A stretch of DNA of 64,000 nucleotides from an uncultured bacterium. Its GTDB lineage: Bacteria > Bacteroidota > Ignavibacteria > UBA10030 > BY39. A model generated the notes under the pieces. It did not search any database, was not told the origin of the DNA, and saw only the letters and a list, made by a program, of their open reading frames with translations. This document shows positions 2,380-64,000 of this stretch, piece after piece (the first letter of the stretch is position 1; the number at the start of each line of letters is the position of its first letter). The stretch covers positions 70,293-134,292 of the forward strand of contig CALCJK010000018.1 in assembly GCA_937967455.1 (NCBI GenBank), written 5' to 3'. A program made the translations under genes and the position numbers.

Positions 2380-4146
2380 TTATTTTTCAATTTTAATATG
2401 AAGTTCACGAAGTTGTTCTTCGTCAACTTCAGAAGGTGAATCGTCCATTAACGACATTGCACTCGTAGTTTTGGGAAAAGCAATAACATCGCGAATGGAT
2501 TTTTGTCCAGTAAGTAACATAACAATTCTATCAAATCCAAATGCAATTCCACCGTGTGGTGGTGCCCCGTATTTAAAAGAATCCAGCAAAAAGCCAAATT
2601 TCTTTTGTGCTTCGGCCTCTGAAATACCTAATAAAGAAAACATTTTATTTTGTAATTCTCTATTAAAAATTCTTATACTTCCACCTGCAATTTCATTCCC
2701 ATTTAGAACAAGATCATATGCACGAGCTCGAACCTTCTCAGGATTTTTATCCAGCAATTCAAGATCCTCAAACTTAGGAGATGTAAATGGATGGTGTACA
2801 GCAATGTAACGTGACTCATCCGGATTATATTCAAGTAATGGAAAATCAATCACCCAGAGCAATTCATATTTGTTTGGATCAATTAAATTCTGTCTGTTTG
2901 CAATTTCAATTCTCAATGCACCCAAAATATTATATACCTTTTTGTATTCATCAGCTACAATTAAAATAAGGTCCCCCACTTTAGCATTAATTCTACTTAC
3001 TATTGAATCAAGAACATCTTTTGAAATATATTTTGAAGCAGGTGAATCTATTCCCTTTTCAGTTATTTTCATCCAGATTAATCCACCTCCGCCAAGTTTC
3101 TTGACAAATTCTGTAATATTATCTATTTGACTACGGCTATAATGAGCGCAACTTGGAGCAACAATTCCTGCAACAATCTCACCTTTTTCTATTGTATCCT
3201 TGAAAACCTTAAATTCAGTATTGGACAATATATCATTTAAATATTTAATACTTAAATCAAATCTCAGATCTGGTTTATCCGTACCGTATTTCTCAATTGC
3301 ATCTTTATATGTTAAAATTTTGAAAGGTGTTTTAATACTAATTCCTTTAATCTCTTCAAACATTTTTACAATTAACCCTTCAACCAATTTAAATATATCA
3401 CCCTCATCTACAAACGACATTTCAACATCGATTTGTGTAAATTCTGGTTGTCGATCAGCTCTCAAATCTTCATCACGGAAACACTTTGCAATCTGGAAAT
3501 ATCTATCAAATCCAGCCACCATCAGTATTTGTTTGTATGTTTGTGGCGATTGTGGAAGAGCATAGAACTTACCTGGATGTACTCTGCTCGGGACAAGGTA
3601 GTCTCTGGCACCTTCCGGTGTACTTTTCATTAAAATTGGGGTCTCAATTTCAACGAAACCATTCTCATCAAAATATTTTCTGGTTAATTGATATAACCGA
3701 TGACGGGTTAACAAATTTCTTTGCAATGTCTGCCGTCTCAAATCAAGATATCGATATTTTAAGCGGATTTCTTCACTGATATCAATATTATCTTCTATTT
3801 GGAAAGGAGGAGTTTCAGATTTATTAATAATATTTAGTTCATTTGCAATTAATTCTATTTCTCCCGTTGTAATTTCATTATTTTCCTGTCCAGGAGGTCT
3901 TCTTTTCACAATCCCAGTAACAGAAATAACAAATTCGCTTCTGAGTGCACTTGCTAATTCATGCAAAGATTTATTCTCTTGAGGATTAAAAACAACTTGA
4001 GTTTTACCATATCGATCACGAATATAAATGAAAATTATTCCACCAAGGTCTCTGCGACTGTCAACCCAGCCGTTTAAAGTAACAAATTGGTCGAGATGTT
4101 GTAAGTTTAATTCACCACAGGTATGTGTTCTTTTTTTATATATCAT
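2380..4146 (-). CDS. aspS: aspartate--tRNA ligase
   Basis: 588 aa with an N-terminal OB anticodon-binding domain (LDQFVTLNGWVDSRRDLGGIIFIYIRDRYG) and class II synthetase motifs (FQIAKCFRDEDLRADRQPEFTQID, GGSIR). Confidence 0.9.
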   Translation of the reverse strand: MIYKKRTHTCGELNLQHLDQFVTLNGWVDSRRDLGGIIFIYIRDRYGKTQVVFNPQENKSLHELASALRSEFVISVTGIVKRRPPGQENNEITTGEIELIANELNIINKSETPPFQIEDNIDISEEIRLKYRYLDLRRQTLQRNLLTRHRLYQLTRKYFDENGFVEIETPILMKSTPEGARDYLVPSRVHPGKFYALPQSPQTYKQILMVAGFDRYFQIAKCFRDEDLRADRQPEFTQIDVEMSFVDEGDIFKLVEGLIVKMFEEIKGISIKTPFKILTYKDAIEKYGTDKPDLRFDLSIKYLNDILSNTEFKVFKDTIEKGEIVAGIVAPSCAHYSRSQIDNITEFVKKLGGGGLIWMKITEKGIDSPASKYISKDVLDSIVSRINAKVGDLILIVADEYKKVYNILGALRIEIANRQNLIDPNKYELLWVIDFPLLEYNPDESRYIAVHHPFTSPKFEDLELLDKNPEKVRARAYDLVLNGNEIAGGSIRIFNRELQNKMFSLLGISEAEAQKKFGFLLDSFKYGAPPHGGIAFGFDRIVMLLTGQKSIRDVIAFPKTTSAMSLMDDSPSEVDEEQLRELHIKIEK

Positions 4147-4281
4147 TGAAAATTTTTAAGAATTAAGATGCTCAAGCAATATAACAAATAGAGCTTACTT
4201 TTGCAAAAATATATATTGGTTGTATTTTTCAAATTTTTTTCTATATTTAACTAGAATTTTAAAAAAATTGAGAGTTCAAAA

Positions 4282-15071: not shown

Positions 15072-16619
15072 ATGCGACATATTTTAATTTTTGTATTCAT
15101 CTTAATGATGTGTAGTTTGACTTTTTCTCAAGACTTATGGCCAGATTACGCAGGAAAACAAGCTTGTTTTGGTTGTCATATAAGCATTAAGCCGATAGAT
15201 TTAGCAGAGTTCAATAGGTCAGGCCATCCATGGAAAATTATACGTGTTGATAGTACAAAAGTTGATGTCGATGGTGTGTTTAAACCGTTTCCATCTGGAA
15301 CTAACGAGCTAGGAGTACCACTTGCCCCAGAGGCATTAGCACTTGGTTATCGTTATGATGAGCTATATCAGGATTCAAGTGTATCTTTTATGTTAGGAGG
15401 ATATGGATGGAAGGCACGCTGGATGAATAAAGATGGATATATTTTTGAAGGTACTAAAGCTCAATATAATCTTGGCACAATTCATCCTGATATGCGTGGA
15501 CATTCTTCTTATAATGCATCGCAGGTCGGGAATGCACCATTTGCTTTGCGTACACCAGTAGGAGCAATATACACATGCGGAAATTGCCATACTACTGGAT
15601 GGAAAAAATACGATCCTGTAAATTCTCCTTATCGCTTCGAGGATAGGCCAGGCTTCGACGGAACATTCTTCGAATTTGGTGTACAATGTGAAGGTTGCCA
15701 TGGTCCTGCAAAGGCTCATACTCAAAATCCAGCATCAATCAAACCACCGAAAGATGGGTTCAATATGTGTAAATCGTGTCATGCAAGGGGATTAGGTTTA
15801 CGAATACCAGTTAAGTCAGATAAACAATTTCTGGATCATCGTGAACAATATGATCAAATGTTATTTACAAAACACCGTCGTAGTGCATCTATGACTTGTG
15901 TAACCTGCCACGATCCACATAAGAGTACAGTCTATGATCTTGGTGGTTTAAAGTCGACTGCAAAAACTTGCCAACCATGCCACCAGAATAAACAAATAAG
16001 AATAATTAAAGACGGTGTAGAAATTCAACATAATGAATGTAGAGATTGCCATATGCCATACACTGGTCTTACTGCTGTAAAACAGAATAACAATCGTGGC
16101 GATTTGTCAAGTCATATATGGAAAATAAACACAAATCCGGTAACAAAACACGAAGCTATGTTTGATACAGTTAGTTTAAATGTAATTATCCCGCCAGATT
16201 CGATAGTATCCCATACACTTGACTTTGCATGTTTAGGTTGCCATACAACTCGCAATGTTACCTGGGCATCTGGTCATGCAACTGATATACACAACAAGAT
16301 AATAAGCATAACAAGTGTTACATCCAATAAGCAGATACCAAGCGCCTATTATCTTAAACAAAATTATCCTAATCCTTTTAATTCAAATACCACAATTTCG
16401 TTCGGATTACCTTCCGACGACAATGTAAGAATTGTAGTTTTCAATTCAACTGGCGAAATGGTACGAACACTGATTAATGGTAGATTCGAAGCTGGTACTC
16501 ATATCGTACAATGGGATGGTTTAGACGATGCCGGAAAGCCCGTAAGCAGTGGTGTATATCTATATAAGCTTGAAACAGATAATTATTTAGTTTCGAAAAA
16601 AATGATATTAATGAAATAA
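15072..16619 (+). CDS. octaheme c-type cytochrome with T9SS C-terminal sorting domain
   Basis: Signal peptide followed by eight CxxCH motifs (CFGCH, CGNCH, CEGCH, CKSCH, CVTCH, CQPCH, CRDCH, CLGCH). C-terminal QNYPNPFNSNTTISF...GVYLYKLETDNYLVSKKMILMK. Confidence 0.85.
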   Translation: MRHILIFVFILMMCSLTFSQDLWPDYAGKQACFGCHISIKPIDLAEFNRSGHPWKIIRVDSTKVDVDGVFKPFPSGTNELGVPLAPEALALGYRYDELYQDSSVSFMLGGYGWKARWMNKDGYIFEGTKAQYNLGTIHPDMRGHSSYNASQVGNAPFALRTPVGAIYTCGNCHTTGWKKYDPVNSPYRFEDRPGFDGTFFEFGVQCEGCHGPAKAHTQNPASIKPPKDGFNMCKSCHARGLGLRIPVKSDKQFLDHREQYDQMLFTKHRRSASMTCVTCHDPHKSTVYDLGGLKSTAKTCQPCHQNKQIRIIKDGVEIQHNECRDCHMPYTGLTAVKQNNNRGDLSSHIWKINTNPVTKHEAMFDTVSLNVIIPPDSIVSHTLDFACLGCHTTRNVTWASGHATDIHNKIISITSVTSNKQIPSAYYLKQNYPNPFNSNTTISFGLPSDDNVRIVVFNSTGEMVRTLINGRFEAGTHIVQWDGLDDAGKPVSSGVYLYKLETDNYLVSKKMILMK

Positions 16620-41768: not shown

Positions 41769-44700
41769 TTATTTCACAAGCAACATCCTTCTTTGTTGAA
41801 TTTTAACATCCGAACCTACATCATGTGTTTTATTCAACTCATTAACCCATATTCTATAGACATATACTCCAGTCGGTAAATTACTGGCATTAAATTCAAC
41901 TTGATGATATCCTGATTGAAATTCTTGATTATCTATCAAGTTCATAATATGCTGTCCAAGTGTATTAAATATTTTTAATGACACGATAGAATTCACTTTC
42001 AAACCAAAATTAATTACAGTACTTGAATTAAATGGATTGGGATAATTCTGGTATAGAATAAATTTTTCTGGTATTTCCTGAATTTCAGTTATTTGTTCAA
42101 ACGGTGGTTTAGGTGGAAGTTCATTCGTAGGTATTACTCTGATCCTAGACAAAGCATTATAAATTCCTGAAGATGAAAGTATAAGCTTCCCATTTTGATC
42201 AACCTTCACCCAGTATCCCTTACCTGGATAAATTGTATCAGCTATTAAATAACCAGATGAATACTTATAAAAATCAGAGGTTACAATACTGCCGGGTATT
42301 GAAGTTATTGAATTAATGCTAACAGCATTTGAAGCTGAACCAATTAAATTCCAGCCCGCATTAACATCAACTGTTTCAGGATCACATAAATAGCCGGTCA
42401 TTACTACATTTCCTGTGTCATTAAATTTTAACCAGTATCCAACTCCAACAGATAAGGTTTCCTTTTCCACATACTCAGAATTATACACAAAAGCTTTAGA
42501 ACTCGATGTTGGATACAATACAACCTTTCTAAAATCAGAAACTTGTAGAGGTACTGAAAGCAAATTCCAGCCCTTATCAAAAACATAAGTATCCGAAATC
42601 ATACCAGACATTGCACCAGTATAAAATGACCATGGGGATCCGGAAGCTTGTATATTTGCACTTGAATTTAAAGCATTAATTTGCCAGTAGTATCTTTTAT
42701 TAGTATCAAGTAAAGTATATGAGTAAGTTGTATCTGTTTGGTTACTTACAAAATTAGGTGGATGTATAGTATCAAGATAAACTAAATAATAACCTGCTGC
42801 TTTTGAAGATTGCCAAACTAATTTTCCATTCGTAGGTTGGTTAAGAATTCCATTTGAGGGAGAAACTAATGTAAAGGAAGCTGGTGAATTTATAACATAC
42901 TCATCAGCACCAATGTCTGGTGAAGTACTTCTTGCATTTCCATCGAAATCATCAACAATTCCTATTAAAGGAATTCCATTATTATCTGCATAGGAATATA
43001 CCGTTGAATCAATATGCAAATTATTTGCGACAGTATTAACAAATTTTGGATCAGCATTAAAGCTTGCAAAATCACACATAGCAAGAGCATTCCATTGTGT
43101 TAGGTTAGAATAAAAATTTATCCACCGAGTAAGGTGGGAATTGTTAAGATTATAAAAAACATTATTATCTGAAGAACCCGGGAACCAATTTACTGGTTGA
43201 ACTGAATTTGAAATCGCAATATGGAAACCGCTTCCTGATCGCTCATTTGAAAATATATTGTTTTTGATATTTACTAGTGATATACCATCCCTTCTGTAAC
43301 AATATGAGGAATCCAAACCAGTTGAACTTCCACCAATGTAGATGGAGTTAAAAAATAGGTTATTGTAAAATTTACCAGTAACTATTATATCATGTATGCC
43401 AGTATAAGTACATTTATTTGAAAGCCCAACACCTAATGAAATTATGTTATTTACAATTGTTACACTATCATTTAAATTGCCAAGTAAAAATCCAACAACA
43501 TTACTTGATGCACTAACATTATTTGGCCCAACATTGTATAAAAAATTCTTGGAAATATTTGTATATTTACACATAATAAATACGCCAATAAAATCATTGG
43601 CAACTGGTTGAGATTGATTAACATTGACAATTGTATTTTTGATCACATTTGCAGTATCAGCAAACATGATTTTAATACCAGAAACAACCCCACCACCATC
43701 AATTCTAACTTCTTTACTCAAACTTGTGTCACCTATAATATTTCCATTAATATTTACTCGCGTAGGATTTAACATACTAATTCCATTAAAACTTATACCT
43801 GTAAAACCTGAAGATATTGCTGGACTGACAATAAATATATTTCTTATTACATTATCTCGAATTGTATTTAACAATACAGTATCAACACTTAGATCAATTC
43901 CAGTAAATGTGGAGTTACTCATATCAATAAGTGGAGCACCTTCTGCCATTGGATTACTACCACCAATAAAGTTCCCACTTATAAAATGCCCCCCGCTCTT
44001 TTGGGAAGTTGAAGGTAGTAAATATATACCTGTCATTTGCTGAGACTGAGGATAACTTTGATAAAGAGAATTTGAAATAAGATTCCAACTTAGTCCGTAT
44101 AATTTTATCCCATAATTACTCCAATTATAGATTTTACAACTCTGAATTGTATTAGAATCATTTGGAGCACCTGTAGTCCAATCAGAATAGATTGCATTCA
44201 TTGGTTGAACTGAAGAGATATCAGATCTATCTCTTATTTCACAATTATTAATAACATTATGACTGTTTCCTTGTGCATAAGTATGTTCACCAAAGTAAAC
44301 TGTTCCACTGTAACTTGAAGTATTCTGACCTTCTATTTTCAAGTATTTCAAAGTATTATAAGTAGCATCGTTATTTATGCGGATGGTTGGTCCAACGTAT
44401 GCAATACTAATGTTACGAATAGTCCAATAAATAGAATCACCAACTCCACCAGCTCTTCCATCCAATGTTAGTCTTTCAACACCGTTAAGGTCAATCAAGG
44501 GATATGCACCTGTTGTAATTCCTTGAGTTGTTCTCATACTTACACCACTTGCCGGACGAATTGTAACAGTCCAGTTTCCACCACTTGTAAGATACTGATT
44601 AAACCTTATTGGAAATGTTTCACCCGTATTGCCGTCATAATCTGATTGTAATTCAAAAATTACATTACCAGTCAGAATTTTTTTATTTAATGTATCTGCT

Positions 44701-45269
44701 ATCTGACTTAATTTCTTAAAGGTATAAGAATTTCCAACAGAATAAGTACCACCGGCAAACATTAAGGAACTAAAATTATAACTTAATGCATTTTGAACAT
44801 CAGGAAGTGGACCAATATTTTGGCTTGCTGGGAAATTACCGCTTTGTTGTGCTGAGCCTGTACTCATCAGGATTGATCTCATTGTGAGTGGTGATAATGA
44901 TCGATTATTAAGTTGTTCATATTTACTCTCAACCAATGCCACTGCTGCAGCTACTATCGGAGATGCGCTTGATGTACCCGCAAAACAACTATCATAATAA
45001 TAATTTTTCCCCGAAGCAATATATAGTGGTGGACATATTAGAAATGTACCCGTTGTTGTCACTTTTTCACCCCATCCTTGTAAGTTAACTCTGGAGCCAT
45101 AATTTGAAAAAGGCAATCTCGAACGTGCTACATCCGATCCAAAAAAACTGCTTGGAGCTGCACCCGCACCCACTATTATCGCACCGGAATTATTTTGCGA
45201 CAAAAACGGCCAATGTCCATAATTCCATGTACTGTAAATTGGAGAATCCAGATTTTGATGATGTCGCAA
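41769..45269 (-). CDS. large beta-helix/Ig-like T9SS cargo protein beginning inside a subtilase (S8) domain (N-terminally truncated?)
   Basis: The first ~110 residues match only the C-terminal third of an S8 catalytic domain (FSNYGSRVNLQGWG...AGTSSASPIVAAAVALV). The catalytic Asp and His regions and a signal peptide are absent. A parallel beta-helix-like repeat region follows. C-terminal T9SS CTD (QNYPNPFNSSTVINF...GVYVYRIW). Confidence 0.6.
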   Translation of the reverse strand: MRHHQNLDSPIYSTWNYGHWPFLSQNNSGAIIVGAGAAPSSFFGSDVARSRLPFSNYGSRVNLQGWGEKVTTTGTFLICPPLYIASGKNYYYDSCFAGTSSASPIVAAAVALVESKYEQLNNRSLSPLTMRSILMSTGSAQQSGNFPASQNIGPLPDVQNALSYNFSSLMFAGGTYSVGNSYTFKKLSQIADTLNKKILTGNVIFELQSDYDGNTGETFPIRFNQYLTSGGNWTVTIRPASGVSMRTTQGITTGAYPLIDLNGVERLTLDGRAGGVGDSIYWTIRNISIAYVGPTIRINNDATYNTLKYLKIEGQNTSSYSGTVYFGEHTYAQGNSHNVINNCEIRDRSDISSVQPMNAIYSDWTTGAPNDSNTIQSCKIYNWSNYGIKLYGLSWNLISNSLYQSYPQSQQMTGIYLLPSTSQKSGGHFISGNFIGGSNPMAEGAPLIDMSNSTFTGIDLSVDTVLLNTIRDNVIRNIFIVSPAISSGFTGISFNGISMLNPTRVNINGNIIGDTSLSKEVRIDGGGVVSGIKIMFADTANVIKNTIVNVNQSQPVANDFIGVFIMCKYTNISKNFLYNVGPNNVSASSNVVGFLLGNLNDSVTIVNNIISLGVGLSNKCTYTGIHDIIVTGKFYNNLFFNSIYIGGSSTGLDSSYCYRRDGISLVNIKNNIFSNERSGSGFHIAISNSVQPVNWFPGSSDNNVFYNLNNSHLTRWINFYSNLTQWNALAMCDFASFNADPKFVNTVANNLHIDSTVYSYADNNGIPLIGIVDDFDGNARSTSPDIGADEYVINSPASFTLVSPSNGILNQPTNGKLVWQSSKAAGYYLVYLDTIHPPNFVSNQTDTTYSYTLLDTNKRYYWQINALNSSANIQASGSPWSFYTGAMSGMISDTYVFDKGWNLLSVPLQVSDFRKVVLYPTSSSKAFVYNSEYVEKETLSVGVGYWLKFNDTGNVVMTGYLCDPETVDVNAGWNLIGSASNAVSINSITSIPGSIVTSDFYKYSSGYLIADTIYPGKGYWVKVDQNGKLILSSSGIYNALSRIRVIPTNELPPKPPFEQITEIQEIPEKFILYQNYPNPFNSSTVINFGLKVNSIVSLKIFNTLGQHIMNLIDNQEFQSGYHQVEFNASNLPTGVYVYRIWVNELNKTHDVGSDVKIQQRRMLLVK

Positions 45270-54214: not shown

Positions 54215-56934
54215 ATGATGGATACTGAAACAATAAAACAGGAAATCAGAAAGCTTGTAGAGAAATACAATAAAGTTGTAGAAGAAAAGCGAGTCGGCAA
54301 GTACAACGAGGAGATGACTAAAAAAGATTTTATTCTTCCACTTTTTCGTGCTTTGGGCTGGAACACCGAAGATTCAAACGAGGTTACTGCTGAAGAAAAA
54401 ATCTCCAAAAAAAGAGTTGATTATGGTTTCAGAATTAATGGCATTCCTAAATTTTTCCTTGAAGCAAAAGCACTAAAAGAGGATCTGGACAATCCTAAAT
54501 TTATTGAACAGGCAATTAATTACGCATGGCATAAGGGCTGCACCTGGGCAGTTCTTACTGATTTTGAAAGCGTGAAAATCTTTAATGCAGAATGGAAAAC
54601 ATCTAACCCATTGCAAAGCCATCTTAAAACAATTCCATACCAGGAATTTTTAGAGAGGTTCAGTGAATTGTGGCTTTTGTCGAGAGAAAGTTTTGAGCAA
54701 GGATTAATTGATAAAGAAGCTGAAAAATGGGGAAAGAAAACAAAAAAGATTTCTGTTGATAAACAGCTTTTGGCTGACTTCACAAGATTCAGAGAATTGC
54801 TTTCAAAAAACATAATGAAGTTAAATCAAAACAAAAATATTACGGAAGAAGAGTTAGACGAGTCAATTCAGAGAATTCTGGACAGACTGATTTTCATAAG
54901 AAACTGTGAGGACAGAGAGCTTGAAGCAAAAACTTTAATCTCCAGCTTCAGGGAATGGGAAAGCAGAGGCAGAGGACAGTTAATAAAAAGTTTAAGAGAA
55001 GTTTTTGCCTATTTCGACGAACAATACAACAGCAAGATATTTGCTAAACATTTATGCGATAGTTTGGATATAGACAATGAGGTTTTGCACGAAATTATTG
55101 AGGGACTTTATTTTACAAAGGACAAATCTGTTTCTTATGATTTTTCAGCTATTGAAGCAGATGTCTTAGGCAATATTTACGAGCAGTATTTAGGACATAT
55201 TTTAAAGAAAAGCGAGAAGAGGGCGAAACTTACAGAAAGCCATGCACGCAGAAAAGAACAGGGAATTTATTACACACCTACATATATTGTTGATTACATT
55301 GTTAGAAATACTTTGGGAGAATTGCTTAAAGACAAAAAAGTAGATCTTGAAAAAATCAGAGTGTTAGACCCTGCCTGCGGTTCTGGCTCATTCTTGATTA
55401 AAGCTTTTGATGTTTTGAATGAGTACTATGCAAAGCACGACAAAAACTATTCACAGACGCAGATTGACTTTGAAACGAGTATGCCATTCACAACGAAAAT
55501 AAAAATCCTTAAAAACAACATTTTCGGTGTTGATTTGGATAAACAGGCAGTAGAAATTGCACAGCTTAATCTTTTATTGAAAATTGCAGAAAAAGGGGCA
55601 TCGCCTTCCATTGCTCCAGGAAAATATTAAATGCGGAAATTCCTTAATTGACGACCCAGCAATAGCAGGAGACAAAGCTTTCAAATGGGAAGAAGAATTT
55701 AAAGAAGTAATGCAAGAAGGCGGGTTTGATGTGGTGATTGGGAATCCGCCTTATGTATTTACAAGAGATGTAGAATTTCAACAATCGTTCAAAGAGTATG
55801 TTCAAAATAACTACTTTAAAGGTTTGGAATCAATATCTAAAAGTAAAGCAATCTGGGAAAGTTAATCTTTATGCTATCTTTCTGATTAAAGCAATTAAAT
55901 TATTAAGAAATCGTGGGATTTTTGGTTTTATTATTCCCAATAATATTTTGAGAACAACTACTTATGATATTATAAGAAAATTCATTTTGGATAATTGTAA
56001 AATATTAAAAATTGTTGATTTGGGGGCTGATGTATTTGAGGGAGTTACAGCAGCAACAATTATTTTAATTTTAGAAAAAGAAGACAGCAAAATCAAAAGA
56101 GATAAAAATAAAGTTGTAATTTATTCTGGAATTAATTTAAACGATAAAAAAGAAGTTGAGCAAAAAGAATTTTTAGAGAATACAAGTTATACATTTAATA
56201 TAACTCTCGGAAAGGAAGATAGAAAGATTTTTGATAAGATTGAGAAAGGTTCAATTTTGCTTGGCAACGAGTCAAAATATATAATTGAGGGAATTGTTGG
56301 AAATAGAAAAAAAGATGTTGTAGACTCCCCGATTAATGATAAATGTAGAAAATTCTTGGTCGGCAAAGATATAGGTAGATATAAAATTGATTACAAAGGC
56401 AAATATATTATTTATGATAAAAATAGGCTTAATCGTGCGAGACCAGAAGAAGTATTCACCTCTAAAAAAATAATTATTCAAAGAATAAGCGGCGGGAATA
56501 GACCTTTAGCTTGTGTTTTAGATACTCAAAAATATTATACCTTTGCATCAACAAATCTTATACTTCTAAAAGACGATTCTAACTTTGAATTAGAATATAT
56601 TACAGGGTTATTGAATTCAAAACTAATAAACTATTATTATGTAAATAAATTTACAAACAAATCAACTTTAACTGTGAATATTTCGAGGACATATTTGGAA
56701 CAAATTCCAATAAAACTCATCCAAGAATCCGAACAACAGTCAATAATAAACCTCGTCGACAAAATGCTCTCACTCAACAAACGCCTCAATGAAATCGGCG
56801 ACAAAAAGACAGATGAAAGAGCAAGAATTGAAGAAGAAATCAAAAATACAGATACTGAAATTGATGAGCTTGTTTATAAAATTTATGGCATAACCGAAGA
56901 AGAGAAAAAGATTATCGAGGATAGTTTGGAATAA
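54215..56934 (+). pseudogene. Type IIG (Eco57I/MmeI-like) restriction-modification enzyme, interrupted by two frameshifts
   Basis: Three consecutive overlapping ORFs. ORF 54215..55630 has an N-terminal nuclease-like domain plus MTase motif I (VLDPACGSGSFL). ORF 55584..55865 carries NIKCGNSLI and the NPPY motif IV. ORF 55798..56934 has the LYAIFLIKAIKLL...IIPNNIL helper region and a C-terminal TRD. Frame switches occur near the A5G4 run at 55592-55600 and at ~55830-55860. Confidence 0.7.
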
Positions 56935-58888: not shown

Positions 58889-59100
58889 CAGCACAAACCA
58901 CGACACTCGTTTTATGAAAATGGATTATTGTACTCATTCCATTGTTTTTGCCGATAAAATAGATTGCAGCTCCAGCCGCACGAAAAAATTAGTTAATAAG
59001 AGTGCGGCTGTCGCCGCAACATTTTGCCCACCTCGTGGCTTCGCCACTTCGGTAGGCATTAACGGCAAAAACAACGGCGTGCTTACGCTAAACGTTATAT
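58883..59100 (+). repeat. attC-like site A (R'' ACATAAC overlapping stop ... R' GTTATAT)
   Basis: ACATAAC at 58883-58889, an internal 9-bp inverted repeat CAGCCGCAC/GTGCGGCTG, and GTTATAT at 59094-59100. The left 42 nt are homologous to the left end of site B. Confidence 0.45.
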
Positions 59101-59137
59101 GAAATGGCGGTTTCAAGATGAATAGAGGTAGAAAAAT

Positions 59138-60274
59138 ATGAAATCTAACGATAGTACTCAATTAACACTAGAAAATTTAGAAGATGTTCCACTTACTTAT
59201 GGAGCAGTGATATTAAATAAAGAAAAATTCATTGAAGTTTTATCTGGAATTGTTAATACGGACGATATGAATTCTGTAAAAAATAGGGTCATTATCTTAA
59301 AAGATATTTTAGCTAATCACAGAAAAGATCAAGAAGGGATATTAAATATTGATACTAACGGAGATACTATCCTACTTCGACGAGATGTTATTATTTCTGA
59401 ATTAAATCAGATTATAGAATCTCAGACGAAGGAAAGAGCCGATTACTATTTAAAAAGATTGATAGAGGGAGCTCAAAAAGTCAAAACAAGCAAAATCAAC
59501 GACATAAATCTTTTAAGGTGGAAGGAATATGGCGAAATTATTACTGATAGCCTTTGGATGTTAGGCAAAAGAGATACTTCGGGAGCACATCTTGGATGGT
59601 ACTGGGGGAACTTTATCCCCCAAATTCCGCATCAAATGATGTTAAGATACACCAAAAGAGGGGATTGGGTTTTAGATACTTTTGTTGGAAGTGGAACAAC
59701 CTTAATTGAATGCCGAAGATTAGGTAGAAACGGAATCGGTATAGAATTAAATACAGAAGTGGCACAGAGTGCAAAAGAATTAATTGGAAAGGAGCAAAAT
59801 AGAGATAATGTGGTCAGTGAAGTAATTATTGGCGATAGTAGAACTATAGATATAAGAGAAATTTTAGAAAGATATAAAATTAATCAAGTTCAACTTCTTA
59901 TTATGCACCCGCCTTATCACGATATTATTAAGTTTTCAAAAGACAAAAATGACCTCTCAAATGCAAAGAATACAGAAGAATTTTTAAAAATGTTTGGGGA
60001 AGTAGTGGATAATGCTACTTCATATTTAGAAAAAGGAAGATATTTTGCATTAGTTATTGGTGATAAATACTCCAAAGGCGAATGGATACCTTTGGGCTTT
60101 CTCTGTATGCAAGAGGTATTGAAAAGAGGATACAAGTTAAAAAGCATAATTGTAAAGAATTTTGAAGAAACAAGAGGAAAGAGGAATCAAAAGGAACTTT
60201 GGCGATACAGGGCATTAGTTGGCGGGTTTTACATTTTTAAGCATGAATATATTATGCTATTCAAGAAAAAATAG
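59138..60274 (+). CDS. cassette 3 gene 1: DNA methyltransferase (N6-adenine/N4-cytosine, PF01555-like)
   Basis: IPHQMMLRYTKRGDWVLDTFVGSGTTLIECRRLGRNGIGIEL (SAM-binding motif I region) and LLIMHPPY (motif IV). Confidence 0.7.
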   Translation: MKSNDSTQLTLENLEDVPLTYGAVILNKEKFIEVLSGIVNTDDMNSVKNRVIILKDILANHRKDQEGILNIDTNGDTILLRRDVIISELNQIIESQTKERADYYLKRLIEGAQKVKTSKINDINLLRWKEYGEIITDSLWMLGKRDTSGAHLGWYWGNFIPQIPHQMMLRYTKRGDWVLDTFVGSGTTLIECRRLGRNGIGIELNTEVAQSAKELIGKEQNRDNVVSEVIIGDSRTIDIREILERYKINQVQLLIMHPPYHDIIKFSKDKNDLSNAKNTEEFLKMFGEVVDNATSYLEKGRYFALVIGDKYSKGEWIPLGFLCMQEVLKRGYKLKSIIVKNFEETRGKRNQKELWRYRALVGGFYIFKHEYIMLFKKK

Positions 60275-60285
60275 GAGATAAAACT

Positions 60286-61119
60286 ATGCCATTATTAAGT
60301 CAAAAAGAAGTATTAAATTTAAAACTCAGTTGTATTCCATTACCGCAGTTAAAAACGTTCACTCTAAATTTAGGAATTAGTAACACTGGTTCAGCGGGAG
60401 AGATTATTAAAAGAGTTTTAGACAAGGAAATAGATGTAAAAATTGTGCAGGAATTCATAAAACAAAAATATAATGAGAAGATTCAAAAACGGAGAGAGAT
60501 TATTTCTGATGAGGATTTAAAGAGAGAGTTAATGAAGGTTAAAACTTTTTCTTGGGGTGTAATTCAGGGGCAATTGGATCAAAAAATACAAACTGAATAT
60601 GTAAGAAGAATTGTCCGATATGAAGAGTTGCTGAATAATGTTAGGGCGAAACTTCATGATGAGGTAACAAATTATGTAATTTGCACATGGTTTAACCATT
60701 GGACAACTGTGCTAATAGAAGAACATATAAGCACTCATTCAAAAGTAATCCCTACTATTAAAAACATAAAAGGGATTGATATTTTCTTTGATGGGCAACC
60801 ATTTGATTTAAAAGTAACTTATTTACCACGCGAATATAATCCAGTAGATGCGATAAAAAATCCTTCTGAATTGGCAATCTGGCTATATGAAAATCAAGGT
60901 GCTCAAAGATTTGGGTCTGATAACCGGTTATTTGTTGTTTTGTTAGATAAAGATAATCCTGAACGAAGTTGGGAGTTAAAAAGAGATTTTGTCCTTGTAT
61001 TTCAGATGATTGACAATTTCTTTAATAAGGAAACCGTTTCAAAGAAAGATGAGATTGTTTTCACTTTTGGAAGAAAAACATATACGGCAGTTACAAAAGT
61101 ATTAATAATAACAAAATGA
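60286..61119 (+). CDS. cassette 3 gene 2: putative cognate restriction endonuclease (inferred from context only)
   Basis: 277-aa ORF starting 12 nt after the methyltransferase stop and lying in the same cassette. No recognisable motif. Confidence 0.3.
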   Translation: MPLLSQKEVLNLKLSCIPLPQLKTFTLNLGISNTGSAGEIIKRVLDKEIDVKIVQEFIKQKYNEKIQKRREIISDEDLKRELMKVKTFSWGVIQGQLDQKIQTEYVRRIVRYEELLNNVRAKLHDEVTNYVICTWFNHWTTVLIEEHISTHSKVIPTIKNIKGIDIFFDGQPFDLKVTYLPREYNPVDAIKNPSELAIWLYENQGAQRFGSDNRLFVVLLDKDNPERSWELKRDFVLVFQMIDNFFNKETVSKKDEIVFTFGRKTYTAVTKVLIITK

Positions 61120-61132
61120 AACCGCTACTTCA

Positions 61133-61361
61133 TATAACACAGCATAAAAGTCACAGCCCTTTTTCCAAAAGGGCTGGATCCAGCCCATTCTTTAGAATGG
61201 GCTGTGAGTTCGTGTCTTATGGCACTCACCCAAACCCAGCACTTTTTAGGTGGGCAATGCGAACCTACTTCTTGAGGAGACGATATTATAAGGGTTTCAG
61301 TGATGTGTAGAAGAAAAACGATAAAAAAGTGCTGGGCTTCTTTTATGCTGGGAACGTTATA
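61133..61361 (+). repeat. attC-like site C (R'' ATATAAC ... R' GTTATAT) with strong hairpins
   Basis: ATATAAC at 61133-61139. Hairpins AGCCCTTTT-TCC-AAAAGGGCT and CAGCCCATTC-TTTA-GAATGGGCTG. A 13-bp long-range inverted repeat CCCAGCACTTTTT/AAAAAGTGCTGGG. GTTATAT at 61355-61361. Confidence 0.5.
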
Positions 61362-61404
61362 TGTAATTGGCGTGCAAATTTTAAAAAACTAGGAGGACAA
61401 AGAA

Positions 61405-61896
61405 ATGGCCAGAAAAGTATTTTATAGTTTTTATTACAAAGAAGATAACTGGAGAGCGTCTCAAGTTAGAAGTATGGGAATTATTGAAGGCAACCAACCT
61501 GTTTCAGATAATGATTGGGAACAAATTAAAAAAGGCGGAGATGAAGCCATTAAAAGATGGATTAATCAACAACTTAATGGTAGGTCATGTACTATAGTTT
61601 TAATTGGGACAAATACAGCAGGAAGAAAATGGATAAAATATGAAATTGAAAAATCTTGGAATGACAGGAAAGGATTATTGGGTATTTACATTCATAATTT
61701 AAAAGATAAAAATGGTAACAAAAGTTACAAAGGAAATAATCCATTTGATGATTTTCAGCTTAACGGTAAACCATTGTCACAAATAGTTAAAGCCTATGAT
61801 CCTCCATATTCAAATAGTAAAGATGTTTATGATTATATAAAAAACAATATAGCATCATGGGTTGAAGAAGCCATAAGTATTCGTAATAATTATTGA
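61405..61896 (+). CDS. cassette 4 gene 1: TIR-like (MTH538/DUF1863, Thoeris ThsB-like) protein
   Basis: MARKVFYSFYYKEDNWRASQVRSMG...CTIVLIGTNTAGRKWIKYEIEKSW...GIYIHNLKDKNGNKSYKGNNPFDDF closely follows the ThsB/DUF1863 pattern (KVFxSFhYxD..w..nqvRn ... CVLIG..T..R.WV.YEI ... GIHIN..KDK.GN...KG.NPFD). Confidence 0.65.
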   Translation: MARKVFYSFYYKEDNWRASQVRSMGIIEGNQPVSDNDWEQIKKGGDEAIKRWINQQLNGRSCTIVLIGTNTAGRKWIKYEIEKSWNDRKGLLGIYIHNLKDKNGNKSYKGNNPFDDFQLNGKPLSQIVKAYDPPYSNSKDVYDYIKNNIASWVEEAISIRNNY

Positions 61897-61908
61897 GAGA
61901 ATAAGAAT

Positions 61909-62343
61909 ATGGAAGAAAAAAAAACTGATATCAATTCTCAGGCTGTTCAATCACATTTAAACATTACCCAGTCTGTGATACAGCGAATGGCAACGAATAG
62001 TTCTTCATGCAAAGCGTGGTGTATAACAGTAGTTTCAGCAATTTTGGTTATTGTAGCAGATAAAGGGAAATCTCAATATGCTTATATTGCAATAATACCG
62101 AATATTCTTTTTTTGGTTTTAGATACTTATTATTTAGCCTTGGAAAAAATGTTTCGCATTTCATATAACGATTTTATAAAAAAATTACATGAAAATGTGA
62201 TTGACTTTTCCGATTTATTTGTAGTTATTCCAAAAGGAAACTTGATAAAAATGTTTTTTAAGTCTATTATATCATTTTCTGTTTGGCTATTCTACTTAAC
62301 GCTTTTAATTATGATATTATTAGCAAAAGAAATTATACTTTGA
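61909..62343 (+). CDS. cassette 4 gene 2: 144-aa three-TM protein (candidate membrane effector partner of the TIR protein)
   Basis: A soluble 35-aa N-terminus, then TM segments AWCITVVSAILVIVA, YAYIAIIPNILFLVLDTYYLAL and FSVWLFYLTLLIMILLA. Starts 12 nt after the TIR gene. Confidence 0.5.
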   Translation: MEEKKTDINSQAVQSHLNITQSVIQRMATNSSSCKAWCITVVSAILVIVADKGKSQYAYIAIIPNILFLVLDTYYLALEKMFRISYNDFIKKLHENVIDFSDLFVVIPKGNLIKMFFKSIISFSVWLFYLTLLIMILLAKEIIL

Positions 62344-62378
62344 AAGAATATGATTGAGAAGAATAACACGCCAACAAC

Positions 62379-62432
62379 ATATAACAGCGGCTATACGCCA
62401 TTAAAACGGCGCATAGCCGCAAACCGTTATAC
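62379..62432 (+). repeat. attC-like site E (compact 54 bp: ATATAAC-ag-CGGCTATACGCC-attaaaac-GGCGCATAGCCG-caaacc-GTTATAC)
   Basis: The R'' and R' boxes are inverse complements in 6 of 7 positions. The L''/L' 12-bp inverted repeat has one mismatch and asymmetric spacers, the classic attC architecture. Confidence 0.55.
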
Positions 62433-62456
62433 GCAATGTGCGCAACGGAGGATGAA

Positions 62457-62996
62457 ATGACTAAGACAGTTTTGATCTGCCTATTTACCTTTTTCGTAAT
62501 TGTAAGCGGATGCAAGAAGGAAACTATCACAGGACCCACTGAACCGCAAGATCTTATTTCGAACGTGTCATTCGAACTCAACGGCAATCCGTCCATCGAT
62601 GGTTGGATTTATTGGAGCAATGTCGACTCAATGGTTCAGTTTTCCAATGATGTACCGAACGGAGGCGGTAATTGGTCAGTCCATCTCCGGGTCGGTGATC
62701 GAGTTGTCAAATTCTTGCAGACGAAAATAGCCGCACCTACTGGACGCAATCGCTTCAGAATATCTGTATGGGCACGAAGAGGTCTCATGGAAGCCGGAGG
62801 AAGCCCAAGCGTTGCTGTTCTTTCCCTCAATGACACAACCCGAAAGATTCTCAACGTTCAGGATACAACGTGGGGATATTATGAAGCTTTCGATACGATC
62901 GACACAGTAATTGGAGATAGTCTAACGGTAAGGCTTGGTGATGGATATCTGAGTGAAACATATTTCGATCTGTGCCGCTTACAATTACTTAAATAA
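62457..62996 (+). CDS. cassette 5: lipoprotein of unknown function (beta-sandwich/CBM-like?)
   Basis: Signal peptide plus lipobox MTKTVLICLFTFFVIVSGC. Higher GC. The track ORF starts at 62436 (MCATEDE). Confidence 0.5.
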   Translation: MTKTVLICLFTFFVIVSGCKKETITGPTEPQDLISNVSFELNGNPSIDGWIYWSNVDSMVQFSNDVPNGGGNWSVHLRVGDRVVKFLQTKIAAPTGRNRFRISVWARRGLMEAGGSPSVAVLSLNDTTRKILNVQDTTWGYYEAFDTIDTVIGDSLTVRLGDGYLSETYFDLCRLQLLK

Positions 62997-63012: not shown

Positions 63013-63167
63013 ACATAACACGGCAAACAACGACACTCGTTTATTTGATATGGCTATGTTGAATCTCGGTAAAACAAATAGTTGTGCTCGTTCCATCCCG
63101 TCCGCCACGAAGAATGAGTCATTTATGGTGGCGGAACGGGACGTCGTTGTTTGCCGAGACGTTAGGC
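63013..63167 (+). repeat. attC-like site B (R'' ACATAAC ... R' GTTAGGC)
   Basis: GGCAAACAACGAC pairs with GTCGTTGTTTGCC at 13 bp. An internal bulged inverted repeat CCATCCCGTCCGCCAC/GTGGCGGAACGGGACG. A canonical GTTRRRY core GTTAGGC at 63161-63167. Confidence 0.55.
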
Positions 63168-63195
63168 GAAACGGTGAAGTAAGAAGGTGAAGATA

Positions 63196-64000
63196 TGATA
63201 GATTTTATTGTATCAATTTTTATTGTGCTTTTCGCTGTATCGGTAGTGATTGTTGCAAGAGTTATTATTAATAAGCGTAAGAGACTGTGCGAGTTAAAGA
63301 AAGAAGAAGAAAAGAAGGCACAAGAGGAGCAAAAGAAAAGATGTCAAGAAGAAAATCCTCTTAGGGAATTAGAAGAAGCCAAAGACAGCAAAGAGAAGGC
63401 AGATATAAAACAATTGGAGCCTGAGGAGAAAGAATTAGAGGTAGAATCAGAAGAGATCAAACAGGAAGAACAAGAAGAATGGCCGGAGCCAGTGAAAACG
63501 ACCCCACCCAATAAAAGAGGGGGAAGACCAAGAGGCAATACAGAACAGGGATCTTCAAGTGAGACATCTCCTGAGGAGAGACCACGCCATTTGAAGCCCG
63601 AAATCATTTGTTGGAATAAAAATCGGAACTGGATTGTTTGCATAGAGGTTCCTGAAGAGATTGTATCGCCACGAGTAACTCAAAATGATGAATTACTTGA
63701 GCAGGATACTTCCGATAATACCCGTTACCATCTTAAATACCTCGAGGGTAAAGTAAAAGTTTCTTGGAACAATGGGGAACAAGAGAAAGAAATCCGTATC
63801 CCTGTTACCGAAGAAGGCAGGAATTATCTTGTTTTCAAAATGCGAAAAGATTGGCATGGATTGGGGAGGCTGGTCAAATACCCGACAACCGGCTACTATC
63901 TAATAATTGTTCCAGAAGAATGGCAACGCGACGAAAAGGCGTCAGGCTCCGCTCCTGTAGTACCAGAAAATGTTCAAGTAAACGGATATAAAGCACATTT
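63196..64000 (+). CDS. cassette 6: membrane-anchored protein with Glu/Lys-rich linker and C-terminal globular domain (partial, continues past window end)
   Basis: Not in ORF track (no stop before the window end). ATG 63196 follows GAAGGTGAAG. Manual translation reads MIDFIVSIFIVLFAVSVVIVARVIINKRKRLCELKKEEEKKAQEEQKK...RYHLKYLEGKVKVSWNNGEQEKEIRIPVTEEGRNYLVFKMRKDWHGLGRLVKYPTTGYYLIIVPEEWQRDEK..., open to position 64000. Confidence 0.55.

Follow-up and report, generated by a model that had tools for sequence, protein, structure and literature searches.

The question

How does a TIR protein of the ThsB kind operate when its only partner is a very small membrane protein? The question is raised by two adjacent genes in a 64,000-nucleotide (nt) stretch of contig CALCJK010000018.1, hereafter called the window. 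Both genes lie on the + strand and are 12 nt apart: thsB (61405..61896) encodes a 163-amino-acid (aa) TIR-domain protein (ThsB_TIR), and a thsF-like effector gene (61909..62343) encodes a 144-aa protein with three transmembrane (TM) helices. Coordinates, lengths and the 12-nt gap are exactly those given in an original prediction, made from the letters of the sequence, in which a signal that the TIR protein makes was proposed to gate a small membrane effector, in an architecture held to be undescribed. The idea of a gated effector agrees with homologues known as type V Thoeris. The claim of an undescribed system has to be withdrawn, since PADLOC models both proteins under the name PDC-M50 and ThsF has been validated in type V Thoeris. 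We consider it highly probable that the two genes, which are carried on a single integron cassette, constitute a type V Thoeris anti-phage system, made of a ThsB sensor and a ThsF membrane effector. Family membership, the catalytic glutamate, the TM segments, the linkage to TIR genes and the cassette boundaries were all established in the present analysis.

The TIR gene encodes a ThsB protein

The 163-aa protein covers the full Pfam model PF08937 (ThsB_TIR, 8e-29), and it matches the PADLOC models ThsB (1e-75) and PDC-M50B (7e-68), so that its placement in the ThsB/TIR-like family by the original prediction stands. Its catalytic glutamate is E80, in the motif WIKYEIE, which aligns with E85 of the Bacillus cereus protein (BcThsB) and is invariant in the alignment. 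Relatives of known structure in PDB are 8wcf_A (6e-49) and BcThsB itself (6lhy, 6e-23), to which the window ThsB is 41% identical. A Shine-Dalgarno sequence, AGGAGG (61391..61396, + strand), was read from the letters 8 nt 5' of the thsB ATG.

The partner is a homologue of ThsF

In the 144-aa protein, a Kyte-Doolittle scan delineates three hydrophobic segments, at residues 31-52, 58-78 and 115-144, and the AlphaFold2 (AF2) monomer consists entirely of helices (10-52, 55-94 and 123-142, mean pLDDT 85). No match to Macro, SIR2 or SLOG domains was found in it with Pfam. Hydropathy, AF2 and Pfam are thus in accord with the three TM segments, and the lack of such domains, announced by the original prediction. 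What Pfam did return for it, DUF6769 (0.12), was treated as noise. PADLOC PDC-M50A matches at 2e-30, and four A models match.

A recent scan of TIR operons led to the validation of seven new Thoeris types (Yirmiya et al., 10.64898/2025.12.03.692087, bioRxiv, December 2025). One of them, type V, is composed of ThsB and a three-TM effector, ThsF, annotated as DUF2270, and is reported to be enriched in Bacteroidota (10.64898/2025.12.03.692087). We located the validated type V locus by exact look-up of the ThsB sequence of Bacillus thuringiensis DAR 81934 given in Table S1 of that study. This sequence is 100% identical to protein P0391, on locus L017. There, a 141-aa gene (3773-4198) with three TM segments lies 13 nt downstream of ThsB, and a 271-aa gene without TM segments lies upstream. 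The 141-aa gene is taken here as the validated ThsF. In the plasmid loci matching the B. thuringiensis ThsB (H31, H32 and H37), no effector open reading frame (ORF) adjoins the TIR gene.

The window protein aligns with B. thuringiensis ThsF over its full length (BLASTP, 33% identity, E 1e-19), and its hydrophobic segments fall at equivalent positions. When a profile built from 89 diverse representatives of the family was compared with B. thuringiensis ThsF, hhalign returned a probability of 99.4% (E 2e-21), again over the full length. Three residues are invariant in the effector family: R26 and K35, on the predicted cytoplasmic N-terminal helix, and E79, after TM2. Near-invariant positions are Q21, I24, M27, S31, W37, P64, D72, L76 and F82, and the conserved motifs read Q-x2-I-x-R-M-x2-N-S-x3-K-x-W and L-D-x2-[YF]-L-x2-E-x2-F-R. 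The three invariant residues and most of the near-invariant ones are retained in B. thuringiensis ThsF. On the side of the TIR proteins, two entries of Table S1 labelled 'DUF2270 - Type V' share 65% and 58% identity with the window ThsB.

No sequence relative of the effector family was found in PDB. The family has no match to SLATT, one of the 89 representatives giving a weak SLATT_6 match. B. thuringiensis ThsF shows a weak, full-length resemblance to PF24838, the '8xMP, octameric membrane protein family' (E 0.012), which recurs, weakly, in 6 of the 89 representatives. This may reflect a remote relationship, relevant to the oligomeric state.

A large family almost always linked to TIR genes

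The effector family comprises 1,181 clusters at 90% identity by word search, and 4,156 clusters at 50% identity by full search with a hidden Markov model (HMM). Nearly all members are about 145 aa long and standalone, and they are spread over many bacterial phyla and some archaea. Gene neighbourhoods were surveyed in 80 species-representative genomes carrying a ThsF homologue, among which 75 were evaluable, five loci at contig ends being excluded. A TIR gene adjoins the ThsF homologue in 74 of these 75 genomes, so that the co-occurrence of TIR and three-TM genes, suggested as a check in the original prediction, is conserved. The TIR ORF lies at most 60 nt from the ThsF homologue in 68 of the 80 loci. 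The adjacent TIR-domain gene was recognised by Pfam in L053, L059, L079 and L093; L060 was counted as linked because it is nearly identical to L059, and in L039 the ORF beside the ThsF homologue gives a weak Pfam TIR match and another TIR gene lies at a distance of 820 nt. L025 is the sole evaluable locus not resolved as TIR-linked. No ThsA was present in the neighbourhoods of ThsF homologues examined.

At least four clades are represented among the TIR partners, and the two genes are found in either order. The partner may be a short ThsB, as in the window, a 252-287-aa protein of the B. thuringiensis type (including those of E. coli/Klebsiella IncC-type plasmids and of a Terribacillus plasmid), a TIR of the 'YxxFISHxW' type, or a 998-aa protein in which the TIR domain follows leucine-rich repeats (LRR) and Roc-COR domains (LRR-Roc-COR-TIR). 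One conserved receiver served by interchangeable TIR proteins is what a signal-activated effector predicts. Nor are pairs of ThsB and ThsF confined to integrons: they are also carried by plasmids and by defence islands, beside restriction-modification (RM), Gabija-like or OLD-family genes.

Some of these loci deserve a separate mention. At L079:973-3966 (JAZDHY010000099.1, metagenome-assembled genome (MAG) of an uncultured bacterium), the 998-aa LRR-Roc-COR-TIR gene, of ROCO type, stands upstream of the ThsF homologue and overlaps it, which suggests a Thoeris-like system in which the TIR domain shares one protein with a ROCO sensor module of eukaryote-like type. Two archaeal loci, L026 (Nitrososphaera MAG) and L030 (Methanosarcinales MAG), hold a short ThsB and ThsF pair whose effector is 62-68% identical to that of the window; such pairs would imply transfer between domains. 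At L053:3282-3743 (Magnetococcales MAG), the partner of the ThsF homologue is a TIR from the 'xxFISHxWxY' clade, a clade that Table S1 places under a separate, unvalidated '3TM' effector category (10.64898/2025.12.03.692087). This '3TM' class may therefore overlap the ThsF family. Finally, on the E. coli IncC/IncR plasmid RCS46_p (L011), a 287-aa TIR gene has beside it a distant homologue of ThsF (152 aa, 34.5% identity). Pairs of this type also occur on about 75 other Klebsiella/Escherichia plasmids, conjugative resistance plasmids of Enterobacteriaceae, where they are flanked by insertion sequences (IS26, IS110, IS903B) and a RelE/ParE toxin-antitoxin pair.

The pair travels as one integron cassette

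Both genes are contained in an integron gene cassette of 1,070 bp (61357..62426, + strand), whose first letters are the TT of the upstream R' and whose last letter is the G of its own R'. Its own attC site (62379..62432, + strand) was recognised from sequence and motif scan and is conserved in four other loci (L019, L002, L020 and L021). It reads R'' ATATAAC, L'' GCGGCTATACGCC, loop ATTAAAAC, L' GGCGCATAGCCGC, spacer AAACC and R' GTTATAC. On the left, the attC-like site of the upstream cassette (61132..61362, + strand, 231 nt) was identified from sequence, motif scan, inverted repeats and a homology breakpoint at 61356. It reads R'' ATATAAC, L'' CAGCATAAAAG, L' CTTTTATGCTG, spacer GGAAC and R' GTTATAT. 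This site is unusually long and contains two nested hairpins (61148-61210 and 61232-61339); a 64-aa ORF lying within it, at 61116-61310, is probably not a gene. A third, attC-like site, belonging to the next cassette (63013..63167, + strand), came out of the inverted-repeat and motif scans, with R'' ACATAAC, a perfect 14-nt stem CGGCAAACAACGAC / GTCGTTGTTTGCCG, and R' GTTAGGC. The first two sites share the layout R''-1nt-L''...L'-5nt-R', and the right spacer of the third is 4 nt. Written out, the layout common to the first two is xATAAC, 1 nt, a stem of 11-14 nt, a loop that varies, the complement of the stem, 5 nt and GTTRRRY.

A loose scan for the attC motif over the whole window gave 57 raw matches, as against 23-46 in shuffled sequences, a count that we do not regard as above background. 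The attC call therefore rests on the stems and on the homology breakpoints seen across loci. The three intergenic sites have stems of 11-14 nt that are perfect or carry at most one mismatch. By blastn, homology to the cassette was detected at seven loci, representing four independent kinds of locus: a Bacteroidales MAG (L019, 93% DNA identity), a Spirochaetota bacterium (L002-L005, 87%), a Bacteroidota MAG (L020, 86%) and an Ignavibacteriaceae MAG (L021, 81%). Homology starts at 61356, the G of the upstream R' GTTATAT (61357 in L020). For six of the seven loci its end is at 62437/8, just beyond the GTT in the R' of the cassette itself. The BLAST alignment of L020 (61357-62420) stops at 62420, yet the boundary sequence keeps the attC site up to GTT. 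The flanks outside the cassette are unrelated in all seven loci. At the right end, five attC copies are conserved to GTT and divergent beyond, a pattern characteristic of integron recombination at G|TT.

The segment 61357-62426 is thus a genuine integron cassette, one exchanged between phyla (Bacteroidota, Ignavibacteriota, Spirochaetota), and its boundaries show that thsB and thsF form a complete mobile unit. The single attC-bounded cassette of the original prediction is borne out by the sites on either side and by the breakpoints at GTT in other loci. ThsA is missing from this unit, as had been supposed: besides the cassette itself, a Pfam scan of 20 other window ORFs, beyond the cassette neighbourhood, revealed no SIR2, SLOG or Macro domain, and no ThsA domain was found next to the same cassette in L002-L005. 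The ORFs scanned, which include all those of at least 110 aa from 41.7 to 59 kb, contained no integrase or tyrosine recombinase either. As the array runs off the 3' end of the window, either it is a cluster of attC sites lacking an integrase (CALIN), or the integrase lies beyond.

Proposed mechanism and competing explanations

Three elements of the mechanism come from the literature on homologues, namely phage-triggered synthesis of the 3' isomer of cyclic ADP-ribose (3'cADPR), signal-induced toxicity, and a heptamer predicted with AlphaFold 3 (AF3). The ThsB of type V produces 3'cADPR upon infection, which is true of both validated type V ThsBs (10.64898/2025.12.03.692087). Added 3'cADPR is toxic to cells that harbour the type V system of B. 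thuringiensis DAR 81934, and the Tad1 sponge, which acts on 3'cADPR, abolishes type V defence (10.64898/2025.12.03.692087). AF3 predicts for ThsF a homo-heptamer resembling a channel, with pockets of positive charge between the protomers (10.64898/2025.12.03.692087).

For the window locus we infer signal identity, oligomeric state, expression and activity. By analogy, ThsB would sense phage infection and turn NAD+ into an isomer of cyclic ADP-ribose, 3'cADPR being the likeliest. ThsF would be an inner-membrane protein, putatively a ring-shaped homo-oligomer with positively charged pockets between protomers, with which the invariant R26 and K35 of the cytoplasmic helix appear compatible. As no soluble ligand-binding domain can be recognised in the effector, ligand binding must use juxtamembrane helices or protomer interfaces. 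The signal would bind ThsF at cytoplasmic juxtamembrane pockets, R26 and K35 being the obvious candidate phosphate ligands. Binding would open or destabilise the assembly, the membrane would be breached, and the infected cell would halt growth or die before phage release (abortive infection). Packaged as one integron cassette, the pair spreads horizontally as one piece.

Several points weigh against this assignment. The validated type V ThsBs come from other clades than the window ThsB, which groups in cluster 2661146773 of Yirmiya et al., a cluster that also includes type XI ThsBs, for which no known signal molecule was found (10.64898/2025.12.03.692087). Moreover, added 3'cADPR failed to trigger one validated type V system (10.64898/2025.12.03.692087). 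The DUF2270 annotation is also at issue: with hmmscan, PF10028 (DUF2270) matches neither the window effector at E≤1 nor B. thuringiensis ThsF at E≤10. PF10028 is the commonest family among the weak matches of the 89 representatives, and it is found in 11 of them, weakly (best E 0.0012). With the Pfam copy used, the DUF2270 label fails to separate members from non-members; as the label is not reproduced here, membership rests on homology to the validated ThsF. Lastly, no sigma-70-like promoter was found upstream of thsB within the cassette; its expression therefore depends on the array context.

Nothing in the mechanism is less certain than which molecule serves as the signal, because the window ThsB is 41% identical to BcThsB yet belongs to the cluster holding type XI, and because one type V system is not triggered by 3'cADPR. 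The same architecture could accordingly use another molecule (2'cADPR, canonical cADPR or another ADP-ribose derivative), to which the ligand site of ThsF would have co-evolved, making a subtype of type V. The type XI ThsBs of the shared cluster, whose product matches no known molecule, the 33% identity between the window effector and the validated ThsF, and the system unresponsive to 3'cADPR would all fit. BcThsB, however, is itself a 3'cADPR producer, both validated type V ThsBs made 3'cADPR, and R26, K35, E79 and most near-invariant residues are kept in B. thuringiensis ThsF, so that we hold such a change of signal to be rather unlikely. A broader version, in which the short BcThsB-like clade and the divergent ThsF form a chemically distinct Thoeris subtype, distributed across phyla and archaea largely as a cassette, is considered about as unlikely.

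It is much less probable that the pair works with no diffusible signal at all, the TIR protein being an NAD+-depleting effector and the membrane protein a sensor, an anchor or a regulator, for instance one that would detect how phage injection perturbs the membrane. Numerous bacterial TIR proteins are indeed NADase effectors, and membrane proteins that interfere with injection, such as Deva, occur in integron cassettes. In type V, however, addition of 3'cADPR alone is toxic and the Tad1 sponge abolishes defence, and TIR proteins of unrelated clades, even LRR-Roc-COR-TIR, are partners of the membrane family, which better fits a common downstream receiver. Least probable of all, and given hardly any weight here, is a module serving mainly for addiction or stabilisation of the cassette array, in the manner of toxin-antitoxin pairs: toxin-antitoxin cassettes are reported to be common in chromosomal integrons, and a small membrane toxin would suit that role, but homologous pairs protect against phage, and pairs also occur outside integrons, on plasmids and in the defence islands described above. 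Type V Thoeris defence remains the explanation that we prefer.

Neighbouring cassettes and genes

The upstream cassette (59094..61356, + strand), with R' GTTATAT at 59094, contains two genes. The first (59138-60274) encodes a type II N6/N4 DNA methyltransferase (PF01555, 1e-22; PADLOC MTase_II, 3e-148), and the second is a 277-aa ORF (60286-61119), probably a restriction endonuclease, without family match. Contig L001 carries the same four genes (methyltransferase, 277-aa ORF, thsB and thsF). Further upstream lies a type IIG RM gene of the Eco57I/MmeI kind (54215-56934; HSDR_N, N6_Mtase/MmeI/Eco57I and TaqI_C). These genes make up the defence neighbourhood noted from the outset. The type IIG gene is split into two ORFs of 471 and 378 aa, the NPPY motif region being out of frame in a 167-nt gap; the probable cause is a frameshift that made it a pseudogene, phase variation or faulty assembly.

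Downstream, a single-gene cassette encodes a 186-aa putative lipoprotein (62436-62996), with a signal-like …FVIVSGC… and no Pfam or PADLOC match. The next cassette (63195-64000) runs off the window end; its product, of at least 268 aa and without Pfam match, begins with a TM helix, followed by a highly charged linker rich in E and K and by a C-terminal domain. Elsewhere in the window, proteins encoded at 41769-45269 and 15072-16619 bear C-terminal sorting domains of the type IX secretion system (Por_Secre_tail), which suggests that the host belongs to the Fibrobacterota-Chlorobiota-Bacteroidota (FCB) group (Bacteroidota/Ignavibacteriota).

Comparison with known systems

The pairing itself is already known, catalogued in 2023, listed as PDC-M50, and validated as type V Thoeris in 2025. 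With respect to the literature searched, two things have no counterpart: a trial of this ThsB clade alongside ThsF, and a base-precise type V cassette common to Bacteroidota, Ignavibacteriota and Spirochaetota. The novelty is modest, and the added value limited but concrete. At the sequence level, a bridge is made between a validated ThsF and a very large family, devoid of Pfam model and almost always TIR-linked. A complete Thoeris system is shown travelling as a 1.07-kb integron cassette, with base-pair precision, and the association of this ThsB clade with ThsF is pointed out as a candidate for distinct signal chemistry. The reading of the raw sequence had also recovered, independently, the architecture of a TIR signal and a minimal membrane effector that was validated elsewhere in late 2025.

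The closest system is type V Thoeris, with which the window locus shares the two-gene operon, a TIR gene followed by a 141-144-aa three-TM effector, without ThsA, as well as an effector homologous over its full length, with common motifs. The enrichment of type V in Bacteroidota also has its parallel in the FCB-like character of the window, judged from the sorting domains. It differs by its short, BcThsB-like ThsB, of another clade than the two validated ones, by the moderate identity of its effector, and by the integron context, which is not described in the paper of Yirmiya et al. PDC-M50 of PADLOC-DB v2 is the same two-gene unit, its A and B models matching the effector and ThsB, respectively. 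It was listed as an untested 'guilt-by-embedding' candidate, one of 145, with 57 instances (Payne et al. 2024, 10.1101/2024.01.29.577857, supplement), and, unlike the reading given here, has no mechanism attached.

Type I and II Thoeris have in common with the window locus the ThsB-type TIR and the signalling logic, and for type II the membrane-disrupting output, whereas the SIR2-SLOG or Macro effector is absent here. The small TM effectors of cyclic oligonucleotide-based (CBASS) and cyclic pyrimidine-based (Pycsar) systems and of type VII Thoeris (SLATT, 2TM, S-2TMbeta) obey the same principle, a nucleotide signal gating an oligomeric protein that breaches the membrane; the window effector differs by its three TM helices and its lack of SLATT match.

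As regards the mode of transport, the nearest relatives are the 'Tragantia' (brc22/23) cassettes, in which a ThsB homologue comes first and a membrane protein second, in a two-gene integron cassette shown to protect against phage (Kieffer et al., 10.1101/2024.07.02.601719). They are found in mobile class 1-type integrons of Proteobacteria, and their membrane partner, of about 300 aa, resembles the octameric Deva, whereas that of the window is a 144-aa member of the ThsF family. Tragantia is nonetheless a precedent for Thoeris-like systems carried as two-gene integron cassettes.

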